The notes below the pieces were generated by a model. That model made no database searches. It was not told where the DNA came from and saw nothing but the letters and a program-made list of their open reading frames with translations. A stretch of DNA of 64,000 nt. Source: Bacteriovorax sp. Lineage in GTDB: Bacteria; Bdellovibrionota; Bacteriovoracia; Bacteriovoracales; Bacteriovoracaceae. Below are positions 56,254 through 58,478 of this stretch, piece after piece (position 1 is the first letter of the stretch; each line of letters starts with the position of its first letter). The position numbers and the translations under genes are program-made. The stretch is taken from contig JACMNL010000040.1 in the NCBI GenBank assembly GCA_014378525.1, positions 548 through 64,547 of the forward strand, in the 5' to 3' direction.

Positions 56254-56832
56254 ATGAAAGTTGCAAAACTATTAACAGCTGTACTACTTATGTCACAAGT
56301 AATGGCACAGACTGCGATGAGTTCTGAAAAGATTGAAAGAAAACTTTTTACTCTTGAAAAAAGTTTGAATTCAGAAAACATTCTCTTGATTCATACTCAA
56401 ACAGATGAAAACTGTAAGTTTGTTGAAAACCAGAATGGATATGTAGATTTTTACTGGTTGATGGACGGAAATACAAAAAAAGAAGTTCACCCAATGATCA
56501 GATCTAAAGTGGCAGACCGAGTGAAGTTTTCCGGTATAAATGATGATAAAAATTCTTTCCAGGTAAAGCTTAATGATCTGAGTGAATTAAAGACTGATCT
56601 TGAAGATAACAAGATTACTGTTCAGAGTGCTATCGTAAACGGTGCATGCCAGATTCAGTCAGTCATTAAACTTGGTGCTACTGCAAAATATAAAAAATTA
56701 AATTTGAAGCGCACTTACTGTTCAGTAGAAAAAAACTTTTTAGGCGTTCCTAAAGGATGCAAGTATCTTGACCTGGAAGGAACAGACGTTGACACAAATG
56801 AAGCTCTAAAAGTTCGTTTCATGGGAAAATAA
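56254..56832 (+). CDS. Exported protein, DUF4833-like
   Basis: LFTLEKSLNSENIL, VDFYWLM; AGGAG RBS. The family name is from recall. Confidence 0.6.
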   Translation: MKVAKLLTAVLLMSQVMAQTAMSSEKIERKLFTLEKSLNSENILLIHTQTDENCKFVENQNGYVDFYWLMDGNTKKEVHPMIRSKVADRVKFSGINDDKNSFQVKLNDLSELKTDLEDNKITVQSAIVNGACQIQSVIKLGATAKYKKLNLKRTYCSVEKNFLGVPKGCKYLDLEGTDVDTNEALKVRFMGK

Positions 56833-58263
56833 TTAAAACTGAATGCTTGCCGCGATATCATCTACCGGAGTGAATTGAGCATTATCCTTTTTTAATTTCT
56901 CATCAGTCTTTCTCAAATTATTCTTAAATTCTGTCACAAATTTTTGCAGAATATGATTTCGTTTTCCGAAATCATACTCTGTTTCGATCAATCTGGTTTT
57001 AGTCGTCTCTTGAAAAAACAACCTTCTCGCCATTTCATACTTTCCGAAGTCCCAGAATTTTGTAAGTTTGCTGCGGTCGAGTTTTATTTTGTGGCCGGCC
57101 TTCGGAGGAGCATGACGAATCCTCATCGGGATTTTTCTAATATCCATCTTTCCAAAGTTATAGTGATCAACAGTATGGCCGACACTCACATCAAAAAGAA
57201 AATAAGCAACGGTTGAAATGAGTAGTTCACGGTCGCGAATGAGTTCAGGCCCCTTTGGAAACCCCGGAACCCAGGCAGATGCATAATCGGCCCATTTTGA
57301 AAGATAAAAAACTTCTGTGCCGGTCAGGTCAACTAAAACTTCCGTTACAAATTTTTTGAACACCGGATAGTAGGCCTGATGAAACTCTCCATATTTTCCT
57401 ACGATAAACTCCGGTTCAAACTGGTATGCAAAAGGCGGGTAACTAAAGTTTGTTCCGATTCCTTCATACCCTTCAACCAGTAAATCGCGAAGACCAATGT
57501 ATGGCCCGGGGTAAGGAGCGTACGGCATCCACCATTTAGACATGAGCAGTGAAGTCTTGAAAGTCAGTACTGCTTTTTCAAGATATAAAGTAAATCTCAA
57601 ATGCGGATACAGTAGCTGGAAGAGAATATGGTTTTTTGGCAGGGCCGTTTTAGTAATGGCATTTACTGAATCCATTGGAAAATGCAGCAGTGGATGAATG
57701 ACCAGAGTTGAACAAAGTGCACCCCCTTGAAGGACAAAATATTTTGCCAGCTCCCAGTTATCTTCATCATGTGGATAAAAAATGGATTTCGTTTCATCAA
57801 TATAAATTTCAATGACTGAAAAAATATCACCTTTTTTCAGCAAAAGAACTTTTGAAGCAGAAGCATAAATTCCTTTAAAAGTTTTAACGACTCTCACCGG
57901 TTCAAAGTCACATATCCAGATATTTTCTTTATCAAGTTTACTCCCGAAAATTTCACGGTCTTTATTATCAAAAACATTTTTTACAAACTTCGATAGCATT
58001 GAATTGGTAAGCATCGAAACGAATTCATCATTGGAAACTTCTGCCAGTCCAGGTTTTAAGATCCCTCTCAAATACGCTACTGGAGTATATAATAAAGTTG
58101 TGACGTAACGTGAACCGACTCTCAACCACCAGTCGAGTGCTTCTGAGACTGGAACATGAATAACGCCTGCTGATTCACCAAAAGGATGTTCAGGACAAGG
58201 CTGAGGCCATGGCCCTTGTCTTGAGTAAAGAAAGTCAGATGGAGACTGATGATCAACAGACAT
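56833..58263 (-). CDS. Divergent, short lipoxygenase-family protein
   Basis: WELAK..HPLLH..LPKNHILFQLLYPH aligns with the LOX WxxAK..HxxxxH..LxxxHPxxxLLxPH core. HTVDH matches HAAVN/H, and C-terminal SIQF matches SISI. Confidence 0.8.
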   Translation of the reverse strand: MSVDHQSPSDFLYSRQGPWPQPCPEHPFGESAGVIHVPVSEALDWWLRVGSRYVTTLLYTPVAYLRGILKPGLAEVSNDEFVSMLTNSMLSKFVKNVFDNKDREIFGSKLDKENIWICDFEPVRVVKTFKGIYASASKVLLLKKGDIFSVIEIYIDETKSIFYPHDEDNWELAKYFVLQGGALCSTLVIHPLLHFPMDSVNAITKTALPKNHILFQLLYPHLRFTLYLEKAVLTFKTSLLMSKWWMPYAPYPGPYIGLRDLLVEGYEGIGTNFSYPPFAYQFEPEFIVGKYGEFHQAYYPVFKKFVTEVLVDLTGTEVFYLSKWADYASAWVPGFPKGPELIRDRELLISTVAYFLFDVSVGHTVDHYNFGKMDIRKIPMRIRHAPPKAGHKIKLDRSKLTKFWDFGKYEMARRLFFQETTKTRLIETEYDFGKRNHILQKFVTEFKNNLRKTDEKLKKDNAQFTPVDDIAASIQF

Positions 58264-58478
58264 ATTAGACCGCCGGAAAAAATAACAATTAATATTTTCC
58301 TATTTTATTAGAATTTTATTTTTTGTGAGAATTTTTTCATTTATTACCCGAGCGATGCATTTTACTTGATCCGCAATATACAAATCATGGGAAATACCTT
58401 CAACTTCTTTTTGCTAGCTCTAGAGGAAAGATTATCCCCGGCTTGAAAATAAGCTGATCTCCTCTATGATCGTTACTT

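Follow-up and report, generated by a model that had tools for sequence, protein, structure and literature searches.

Lipoxygenases (LOXs) are considered uncommon among bacteria, where what they do is largely obscure. Among those that have been described, the LOX of Pseudomonas aeruginosa acts on foreign lipids. LOX-type proteins can also serve other reactions; the epidermal protein eLOX3 is a hydroperoxide isomerase. Indeed, eLOX3 is a LOX that lacks dioxygenase activity (PMC13319228). LOX substrates are required to carry a 1Z,4Z-pentadiene, and Fe-LOX is inactive with Mn (PMC5437038).

Here, we describe a divergent LOX-like gene from Bacteriovorax sp., located in a 64,000-nucleotide stretch of DNA (“the window”; assembly GCA_014378525.1, contig JACMNL010000040.1, positions 548 to 64,547 of the forward strand). 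In the literature that we searched, we found no biochemistry of any member of the family to which it belongs, and no paper linking a lipoxygenase with Bacteriovorax, Halobacteriovorax or Peredibacter; the same three genera are unmentioned in a 2026 review of bacterial LOXs. In a bioinformatic LOX survey, only Pseudobacteriovorax appears, within a reference title. The new observation made here is that, in relatives, the LOX-like gene adjoins signaling genes.

A single-copy lipoxygenase-like gene

The gene encodes a protein of 476 amino acids (55.2 kDa, pI 8.4) that begins at an ATG start codon. Its features, and those of the region upstream, are as follows (coordinates are those of the window):

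56833–58263, minus strand: LOX-superfamily gene, from the ORF list and translation; stop codon at 56833–56835
58302–58403, minus strand: weak candidate sigma-70 promoter-like sites, upstream of the gene in the 215-bp divergent intergenic region
58183–58215, minus strand: GPWPQPCPEHP (aa 17–27), N-terminal family-specific motif, invariant in the 30-sequence alignment A1
57742–57756, minus strand: WELAK (aa 170–174), start of the LOX “WxxAK” ligand helix, aligned with WxxAK of canonical LOXs
57670–57696, minus strand: HPLLHFPMD (aa 190–198), with putative ligands H190 and H194; both His invariant in 72 representatives
57589–57606, minus strand: PHLRFT (aa 220–225), LOX “PH(F/Y)RxT” motif, aligned with PHFQFT of CspLOX2 and PHIRYT of 12-LOX
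57163–57177, minus strand: HTVDH (aa 363–367), with putative ligands H363 and H367, both His invariant
56836–56847, minus strand: SIQF (aa 473–476), C-terminus, its terminal carboxylate the putative fifth ligand (hhalign, 72 representatives)

The positions of WELAK, HPLLH (aa 190–194, 57682–57696, minus strand), HTVDH and SIQF agree to the base with those in a preliminary description of this DNA. A genome search showed the gene to be single-copy, with zero paralogues, and found no canonical LOX elsewhere in the genome. The sigma-70 scan upstream of the gene gave nine sites where 7.1 ± 2.5 were expected, i.e., no enrichment.

The ORF, Pfam, hydropathy and the structural model all uphold the earlier account of a 476-aa protein with neither a signal peptide nor a PLAT domain. 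No signal peptide or other recognizable export signal was found; there is no hydrophobic N-terminal stretch, and the top Kyte-Doolittle 19-residue window (1.5) lies in a core helix. There was no match to PF01477 (PLAT) or to any other Pfam domain above threshold, and the first 112 residues are modeled as coil and helices rather than as a beta-barrel. Homology to canonical bacterial LOXs begins only at aa 113 (hhalign). Within the N-terminal GPWPQPCPEHP motif, P20 alone keeps ≥90% conservation across the family alignment (A2), and the AlphaFold model has poor confidence at aa 21–40. The protein had also been called “minimal”; the length behind that term stands, but the term is only relative, since the mini-LOX domain of Anabaena PCC 7120 is smaller. 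There are 339 homologues of roughly equal length; the extensions of longer family members (575–752 aa) contain no informative Pfam domain.

Membership in the lipoxygenase superfamily

The AlphaFold2 model of the 476-aa protein has a pLDDT of 89.1 and a pTM of 0.90. A Foldseek search of this model against the PDB gave 113 matches at E ≤ 1e-3, and the best 50 listed were all LOXs, with TMq values of 0.73 for rabbit 15-LOX and 0.71 for a Cyanothece mini-LOX. A profile of the family matched LOXs in the PDB in two regions, at E of about 1e-6. Comparison of alignment A2 with four canonical bacterial LOXs using hhalign gave a probability of 98.9% (E 2e-17) over 341 columns, extending through the last residue. 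Taken from sequence and model, the protein is a highly divergent member of the LOX superfamily, in a distinct and uncharacterized bacterial clade of about 470–550 aa. The distinct LOX clade claimed previously is therefore borne out by the fold (Foldseek) and by profile homology (hhalign, 98.9%); the HMM and structure comparison upheld both, with Mn-LOXs absent from the profile matches at E ≤ 1.

Pfam and NCBIfam do not capture this relationship. The PF00305 score of the protein is 16 bits, under the 23.6 cut-off, and covers aa 160–228 only; no NCBIfam model exists for it. Of the 72 family representatives, just 4 come up to roughly the PF00305 threshold. Because about 94% score below it, LOX censuses based on Pfam models overlook the family, which falls into some 320 clusters at 50% identity across at least six phyla or classes.

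Geometry and conservation of the metal site

In the ligand helix, the spacing is WELAK-X15-H-X3-H-X3-D, compared with WxxAK-X15-H-X4-H-X3-E in canonical LOXs. Given the spacing WELAK-X15-H-X3-H, the first His lies where canonical LOXs have it, and the second comes one residue too soon. Both HMMER and hhalign place a one-residue gap here against the H-X4-H of Fe-LOXs, confirming the earlier report of three intervening residues rather than four. The HxxxH spacing is kept in all 72 representatives, down to 24% identity, and D198, at the canonical Glu position, is present in 68 of them. Since the helix ligands are at i and i+4, not i and i+5, this helix would probably have no need for the local pi-helical bulge of classical LOXs.

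The surrounding motifs are also well conserved among the 72 representatives: W170 is found in 67, A173 in 61, K or R at position 174 in 70, and H221 of PHLRFT in 70. In the alignments, the counterparts of HTVDH are HSSNH in pig 12-LOX and H-x3-N in canonical bacterial LOXs, placing H367 where most LOXs carry Asn; position 366 is always acidic (D in 64, E in 8). At the C-terminus, the chain ends at the SIQF column in every representative; hhalign matches this end without offset to the SIH-I/V terminus of canonical LOXs, and the last block of the AlphaFold model has a pLDDT of 86. S473 is present in 69 representatives and Q475 in 70. The last residue is Phe or Tyr in the family (Y in 41, F in 28 of 72), whereas in canonical LOXs it is usually Ile and rarely Val.

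Six columns are invariant across the 72 representatives, and no others: H190, H194, G268, F335, H363 and H367. This conservation of motifs is far beyond chance. As judged from the alignments, the probable metal ligands are the four His plus the carboxylate at the C-terminus (residue 476), and together they would bind one non-heme metal ion. Comparison with the four closest relatives gave pN values of 0.14–0.16 with synonymous sites saturated (pS 0.72–0.77); where dS was computable in the same comparison, dN/dS was <0.07, indicating purifying selection. At the Coffa-Brash/Sloane specificity region, the alignment contains a 3-residue insertion and the modeled loop at aa 234–238 has a pLDDT <50; for both reasons, neither the Coffa-Brash residue nor the other specificity positions can be assigned.

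Iron or manganese

The preliminary description raised a possible Mn dependence, with the HxxxH spacing as its sole basis. If correct, this would be the first Mn-dependent LOX in bacteria, with the shortened HxxxH helix giving rise to Mn-type coordination geometry. HxxxH is indeed common to this family and the Gaeumannomyces 13R-MnLOX (5FX8, HVLFH); His in place of Asn, the acidic residue 366, Q475 and the aromatic C-terminus could retune the redox potential, and the coordination geometry of MnLOX has been reported to be unlike that of FeLOX (PMC5437038). Probing the PDB with the MnLOX alpha-helix-9 region showed, however, that the two solved fungal Mn-LOXs differ in His spacing: 5FX8 has H290-VLF-H294, and 5FNO, the Magnaporthe 9S-MnLOX, has the ordinary H284-VAYP-H289 (its named active-site residues are His284, His289, Asn473 and Val605). 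With HVLFH in one and HVAYPH in the other, spacing and metal are not coupled; His spacing does not indicate Mn, the basis of the original suggestion fails, and we rejected H-X3-H as a MnLOX hallmark. More generally, the ligands of Fe- and Mn-LOXs are identical and the metal is set by the surrounding redox tuning, so that it cannot be read from the ligands (2026 review, PMC13059375). Other Mn-LOX traits (WLLAK-X14, an Asn ligand and a C-terminal Val) are missing here, and neither 5FX8 nor 5FNO is among the PDB matches of the family profile at E ≤ 1. Four His plus a carboxylate is the arrangement of the iron-containing mammalian 12/15-LOXs, and we know of Mn-LOXs from fungi only; for these reasons, iron appears to be the likelier metal, and Mn dependence is quite improbable.

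Kinase genes adjoin the family in other genomes

At this locus, the neighbors are a convergent gene for a secreted DUF4833 protein and a divergent gene for a lipoprotein. Both are kept solely in the four closest Bacteriovorax relatives and were rejected as operon partners; such genus-level synteny makes them uninformative. Across the family, 39 of 70 loci have a kinase gene next to the LOX-like gene. Two types of partner occur, and neither is an oxylipin-modifying enzyme. In Bacteriovoracaceae relatives, the neighbor is a polytopic-membrane histidine kinase, with HisKA and HATPase_c domains behind about six membrane helices (Pfam). The distant branch of the family, spread over five other bacterial groups, instead has a kinase-STAND-GAF protein of ~1,750 aa, with the Pfam architecture Pkinase-AAA_16-GAF-cyclase/PP2C. 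The adjacency is thus seen with varied outputs (histidine kinase, cyclase, PP2C), and also in varied orientations. Algoriphagus has a canonical LOX of 721 aa (H-X4-H, C-terminal Ile) transcribed divergently from the family gene, and the giant kinase is next.

The locus described here and those of its four closest relatives lack the kinase adjacency. This genome does encode a 431-aa orthologue of the membrane kinase (46% identity over the full length), unlinked, on contig C91. Within the GTDB family of the window, 15 of 19 genomes that carry the LOX-like gene also have the sensor domain of the membrane kinase, versus 5 of 20 that lack the gene (Fisher p = 0.0012, in a test that ignores shared ancestry). 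The exceptions are four gene-bearing genomes that have no kinase domain and five gene-lacking genomes that have one. The sensor domain has no Pfam or NCBIfam model, and Foldseek matches to the partner kinase are confined to its cytoplasmic kinase core. The link to signaling is one of guilt by association.

Possible functions

The host is a Bacteriovoracaceae predator, and the preliminary description suggested that the enzyme oxidizes prey or host lipids. As a predation weapon, the protein would be delivered into prey and would peroxidize prey membrane lipids, a role for which the P. aeruginosa LOX, whose structure (4G33) is among the fold matches and which acts on foreign lipids, offers a parallel. 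The results speak against this suggestion: the protein has no signal peptide or other recognizable export signal, and the relatives’ gene is linked to signaling genes, not to secreted hydrolases. Furthermore, roughly one in two genomes sampled from this predatory family has no such gene, and LOX-like proteins of this type are also present in Bacteroidota, Alphaproteobacteria and Cyanobacteria that are not predators. Typical Gram-negative prey have, to our knowledge, no bis-allylic fatty acids. LOXs need a 1Z,4Z-pentadiene in their substrate (PMC5437038). We regard a weapon as highly unlikely.

Instead, we favor, with moderate confidence, a cytoplasmic, single-domain LOX-superfamily enzyme, probably with Fe, that oxygenates lipid and feeds signaling. 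The enzyme would abstract hydrogen from an unsaturated lipid inside the predator cell and then oxygenate it. Its product, or the protein itself, would be read by signaling proteins, as the neighborhoods in relatives suggest; it is these neighborhoods that argue for a role in signaling and not in attacking the lipids of prey. In Bacteriovoracaceae, the reading would fall to a histidine kinase that has a polytopic membrane domain as its entire sensor, and in other phyla, to the giant Ser/Thr-kinase-STAND-GAF protein. Desaturase-family genes (PF00487) were considered as a clue to a bis-allylic substrate. There are seven in this genome and 0–13 across genomes, with no difference in counts between genomes with and without the LOX-like gene; this clue was dropped, as it gave no support either way.

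A different division of labor would make the LOX-fold protein something other than a primary dioxygenase, i.e., a hydroperoxide converter resembling eLOX3, or a stand-alone sensor of lipid, hydroperoxide or O2 that binds the neighboring kinase and regulates it, in the way that H-NOX proteins act on adjacent kinases and cyclases. The repeated adjacency to kinases, with varied outputs and orientations, is the pattern of a sensor-transducer pair, the metal site is altered across the whole family, and in Algoriphagus, the adjoining canonical LOX could be the source of a hydroperoxide to act on. That a LOX may lack dioxygenase activity has a precedent in eLOX3 (PMC13319228). On the other hand, the ligand positions and substrate-helix motifs are under strong selection, as expected of a working catalyst, and most gene-bearing genomes, including this one, have no canonical LOX as a source of hydroperoxide. 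A converter or sensor is therefore unlikely, and we retain the lipid-oxygenating enzyme as the preferred reading.

More tentatively, and perhaps doubtfully, the family may be the input module of an undescribed signaling route based on oxidized lipids. A LOX-fold metalloenzyme with a re-engineered center (H-X3-H, a fourth His, an acidic residue 366 and an aromatic C-terminus, maybe with another redox potential or metal) would make or sense a lipid hydroperoxide at the inner membrane. The reader of this signal would be a dedicated intramembrane-sensing histidine kinase in the predatory Bacteriovoracaceae, and in Bacteroidota, Proteobacteria and Cyanobacteria, the giant kinase-STAND-GAF proteins. 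If so, bacterial LOX-type proteins would be far commoner than Pfam-based censuses say, and would be primarily signaling devices.

The locus itself is of more modest interest, as one intact, well-conserved, stand-alone member of the family. The family as a whole keeps every LOX ligand position with a geometry changed throughout, making it a natural experiment on how a LOX metal center is built and tuned, including the question of what decides between Fe and Mn. The repeated adjacency to kinases provides a concrete handle on the purpose of bacterial LOX-type enzymes.

Comparison with characterized lipoxygenases

The mini-LOX of Anabaena/Nostoc sp. PCC 7120 is the C-terminal domain, of about 49 kDa, of a catalase-related AOS-LOX fusion. 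Like the present protein, it is bacterial, has no PLAT domain and is of similar or smaller size, and it has been shown to be fully active; unlike it, the mini-LOX has canonical motifs, is recognized by Pfam and is fused to a heme partner, where members of the present family stand alone or next to kinases.

The fungal MnLOXs 5FX8 and 5FNO likewise have no PLAT domain, and H-X3-H is common to 5FX8 only. Both have WLLAK-X14, compared with X15 here. They are secreted proteins in which Asn serves as a ligand and Val is the last residue, where the present protein has His and Phe.

The mammalian 12/15-LOXs (rabbit ALOX15, 2P0M/1LOX; pig 12-LOX, 3RDE) are the top Foldseek and profile matches, and share the ligand set of four His and a C-terminal carboxylate. 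They differ in having a PLAT domain, H-X4-H and a C-terminal Ile; they are eukaryotic proteins of about 660 aa, with 13–16% identity to the 476-aa protein.

CspLOX2 of Cyanothece sp. PCC 8801 (5MED/5MEE/5MEF/5MEG) is the best single-sequence match in the PDB (E 0.002; Foldseek TMq 0.71, TMt 0.61). It is bacterial, has the LOX catalytic fold with no PLAT domain, and its WxxAK and PHxxFT motifs align with those of the 476-aa protein. However, CspLOX2 is longer (569 aa), is only about 14% identical, and has H-X4-H, an Asn-type further ligand and iron, being inactive with Mn (PMC5437038). Set against it, the present family is marked by H-X3-H, a fourth His, the acidic residue 366 and a C-terminal Phe or Tyr. 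Most likely, the protein is an already known kind of enzyme, a LOX, and it is the variant of its metal site that is new.

Identity of the lipoxygenase-like protein

The lipoxygenase (LOX)-like gene occupies 56833-58263 on the minus strand and encodes a product of 476 aa (55.2 kDa, pI 8.4). In the translated ORF, all motifs fall exactly where a preliminary description had placed them:

aa 170-174, minus strand: WELAK
aa 190-194 (57682-57696, minus strand): HPLLH
aa 363-367 (57163-57177, minus strand): HTVDH
C-terminus: SIQF

The motif order, WELAK-X15-H-X3-H-X3-D, gives the first His its canonical LOX distance; the second comes one residue early. As that description also held, signal peptide and PLAT domain are absent: there is no hydrophobic N-terminal segment, and a Pfam search found neither PLAT nor any other domain. 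We consider it highly improbable that the protein is a secreted lipid oxidase directed against prey.

Single-model evidence for LOX identity is weak; deeper evidence is strong. The PF00305 match reaches 16 bits (cut-off 23.6) and spans only aa 160-228, no NCBIfam model was found, and the top PDB sequence match is the Cyanothece mini-LOX (E 0.002). A profile of 30 homologs matches many LOXs in the PDB (E down to 9e-7), aligning at the first ligand helix and at the HTVDH region, which pairs with HSSNH of pig 12-LOX. The AlphaFold2 model from the same alignment (pLDDT 89.1, pTM 0.90) has 113 Foldseek matches in the PDB at E<=1e-3, the best 50 of which are all lipoxygenases, with query-normalized TM scores of 0.73 to rabbit 15-LOX and 0.71 to CspLOX2, the Cyanothece sp. 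PCC 8801 mini-LOX. For comparison, we used four canonical bacterial LOXs whose source genomes, a Myxococcota genome (three LOXs) and Algoriphagus (one), also carry the H-X3-H family (the LOX-like protein and its homologs); all four have WxxAK-X15-H-X4-H and a C-terminal Ile or Val. With hhalign, a 72-sequence family profile matches them at 98.9% probability (E 2e-17) over 341 columns that begin at aa 113 and extend to the final residue, with the chain ends in register. Because profile, fold, and hhalign evidence agree, the protein is a true homolog of the whole LOX catalytic domain, trimmed and without PLAT. "Minimal," as it had been called, is no size record: the mini-LOX domain of Anabaena has a mass of ~49 kDa.

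Conservation and distribution

A word-indexed search returned 339 homologs, nearly all 469-510 aa, the named ones mostly from Bacteriovorax, Peredibacter, Halobacteriovorax, or unnamed Bacteriovoracia. A single nr entry, from Bacteriovorax sp. HI3, already carries the machine-given name "lipoxygenase"; the others are "hypothetical." When 50%-identity representatives were searched exhaustively, 318 clusters emerged. Alignment of 72 full-length members, with identity down to 24%, leaves H190, H194, G268, F335, H363, and H367 as the sole invariant columns. The second helix His comes exactly four positions after the first in every representative, residue 366 is acidic throughout (D in 64, E in 8), and all 72 stop at the same column, ending S-I-Q-[Y/F]. 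Conservation is at least 90% at W170, D198, H221 (the His of the LOX "PHxRxT" motif), R381, R383, S473, and Q475. Just 4 of the 72 come up to about the PF00305 threshold, and domain-based LOX surveys therefore miss the family. Together with the fold and hhalign results, this family-wide altered motif backs the earlier proposal of a new clade with a LOX fold, and the protein is very probably a LOX-superfamily metalloprotein of a distinct clade with a putative metal site. Against its four closest relatives, it shows 77-79% aa identity, with pN of 0.14-0.16, saturated synonymous sites, and dN/dS <0.07 where computable; judged from these substitution patterns, the gene is under purifying selection.

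Among 301 genomes drawn evenly from the phylum (169 genera), 19 carry the gene, all within the window's GTDB family; it occurs in 6 of the 169 genera and in 6 of 8 sampled genomes of the window's genus. Homologs outside the phylum, at 28-40% identity, come from Bacteroidota (Algoriphagus, Prolixibacteraceae), Myxococcota (Minicystis, Sandaracinus), Alpha-, Beta-, Gamma-, and Zetaproteobacteria, and Cyanobacteria; HPxxHFP and the S-I-Q-[Y/F] terminus are retained in all of them, the HxxDH pattern in most. Copies in Shewanella waksmanii HQB-86 (366-kb contig, locus L025) and a Flavobacteriaceae MAG (432-kb contig, locus L027) share 50-52% identity with the window protein, as is typical of copies from Bacteriovoracaceae, though the assemblies are named for unrelated taxa; they could stem from horizontal transfer or from predator DNA within the assembly or bin. 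Some genomes have two paralogs (Minicystis rosea, G142, and G249); the second M. rosea copy (locus L084, 937-2433, plus strand) reads WVLAK-...-HHPRTH and ends in SIQF.

A literature search found no publication on the H-X3-H family. The family does not amount to a new kind of protein; its novelty lies in being a LOX clade whose metal motif is consistently altered and whose signaling neighbors are characteristic.

Genomic context and linkage to kinases

The gene is monocistronic, single-copy in the 3.6-Mb, 144-contig genome, and has the same G+C as its flanks (0.36-0.40). Its start lies 215 bp from a divergent lipoprotein gene, and on its other side is a convergent gene:

56254-56832, plus strand: secreted DUF4833 protein

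The two stop codons abut directly, with 0 intergenic bases, so the 3' transcript ends must overlap. This synteny is confined to the four closest Bacteriovorax relatives. The window locus and the four nearest Bacteriovorax-type loci have no informative linked genes.

Across 70 loci of reference genomes, kinases are the recurrent neighbor class (39 loci). In Bacteriovoracaceae and Oligoflexia, the immediate neighbor of the LOX-like gene, on the upstream or the downstream side, encodes a histidine kinase of 430-460 aa (L007, L010, L011, L014, L020, L021, L026, L030, L033, and L068), in co-directional, convergent, or divergent orientation, with a gap of 0-160 bp or an overlap of 4-23 bp. Examples of the kinase, and the orthologue in the window's own genome, are:

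L007, 4623-6002
L011, 4679-5989
L026, 7423-8721
L014, 7545-8876
L033, 3188-4540
Own genome, contig C91, 11255-12556 (L071, 1504-2799), minus strand

Some six membrane helices, connected only by short loops, lead directly into HisKA and HATPase_c; the whole sensor part is thus a polytopic membrane domain, without a periplasmic domain, and has no Pfam, NCBIfam, or PDB match. Within the window's family, this membrane domain occurs in 15 of the 19 genomes that have the LOX-like gene and in 5 of the 20 that lack it (Fisher p = 0.0012, uncorrected for phylogeny); five of the 19, one of them from the window's genus, have the two genes side by side. The own-genome orthologue is full-length (431 aa, 46% identity) and lies on a separate contig, between genes for a TldD/PmbA-type peptidase and a branched-chain amino-acid permease. 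A signaling role for the window's own LOX-like gene, which is unlinked to this kinase, is a tentative proposal.

In a distant branch, the next gene downstream of the LOX-like gene encodes a 1,700-1,860-aa protein, Pkinase-AAA_16(STAND)-GAF-adenylate/guanylate cyclase or PP2C (L041-L044, L052, L054, L055, L057, L058, L060, L062, and L067). This giant STAND-kinase partner, found here beside the divergent H-X3-H family, occurs in Algoriphagus, Prolixibacteraceae, Rhodoferax, Cocleimonas, Tistlia, Paracoccaceae, and two cyanobacteria. The groups represented are Bacteroidota, Alpha-, Beta-, and Gammaproteobacteria, and Cyanobacteria. In Algoriphagus boseongensis, a canonical-type LOX diverges from the LOX-like gene:

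L042, 3511-5676, minus strand: 721-aa LOX (WxxAK-X15-H-X4-H, C-terminal Ile)

A single cluster thus holds two LOX-superfamily genes and the giant kinase. Similar upstream ORFs of 721-761 aa occur at L041, L043, L046, and L063. Peredibacter-type loci (L015, L018, L022-L024, L029, and L035) conserve, downstream of the LOX-like gene, a convergent 494-aa aldehyde-dehydrogenase-like ORF and a 399-aa thiolase-like ORF, readings made by eye from N-terminal sequence; this conservation may reflect only close relatedness.

Possible mechanism and substrate

One non-heme metal, probably Fe, would be held by H190, H194, H363, H367, and the F476 carboxylate. With i/i+4 spacing, both helix ligands could face the metal from a regular alpha-helix, and the pi-helical bulge of classical LOXs is therefore probably not needed. 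The enzyme would abstract H from an unsaturated lipid and add O2 inside the predator cell, and the product may be read by the membrane-embedded kinase sensor or, in other phyla, by the GAF domain.

LOX chemistry requires a 1Z,4Z-pentadiene (PMC5437038). Because such lipids are needed and none is on record for this organism, substrate is the weak point of every catalytic reading. The genome has seven membrane desaturase-family (PF00487) genes in 3.6 Mb, four clustered within 9 kb:

Contig C33, 21269-29785: cluster of four genes
Contig C98, 7363-8040: one gene
Contig C36, 133263-133925: one gene
Contig C103, 18605-19273: one gene

High PF00487 counts are general in the window's family (0-13 per genome), and among its genomes they do not track presence of the LOX-like gene. 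That the protein is an iron-dependent lipid dioxygenase is an evenly balanced proposition; a LOX-fold protein that converts hydroperoxides, or is purely sensory, is unlikely.

Metal dependence

Mn dependence had been proposed solely from the resemblance of HxxxH to fungal HVLFH. To test HxxxH as an Mn trait, we probed the PDB with the Mn-LOX ligand helix. Gaeumannomyces 13R-MnLOX (5FX8) has WLLAK-X14-H290-VLF-H294, whereas Magnaporthe 9S-MnLOX (5FNO) has the ordinary spacing, WLLAK-X14-H284-VAYP-H289; the latter reading agrees with a docking paper naming His284, His289, Asn473, and Val605 at the active site. Both spacings thus occur among Mn-LOXs, spacing is therefore uninformative on the metal, and the proposal loses its basis. 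Fe- and Mn-LOXs have the same ligands, either type loses activity on binding the other's metal, and selectivity is a matter of redox tuning by the surroundings (2026 review, PMC13059375); CspLOX2 with Mn keeps its geometry and lacks activity (PMC5437038). With spacing uninformative and ligands shared, the metal of the H-X3-H family is not inferable from sequence. The family-wide changes (His for Asn, acidic 366, Q475, and an aromatic C-terminus) leave room for unusual tuning.

We nevertheless regard a Mn-dependent LOX as improbable. No Mn-LOX is among the PDB matches of the 30-homologue profile at E<=1, and the fungal enzymes differ from the LOX-like protein: they are secreted, have X14 ahead of the first His, use Asn as a ligand, and end in Val. 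We know of no bacterial Mn-LOX, and the iron site of mammalian 12/15-LOX consists of four His and a carboxylate; for these reasons, iron is the prior for the H-X3-H family, whose ligand set resembles that of the mammalian enzymes.
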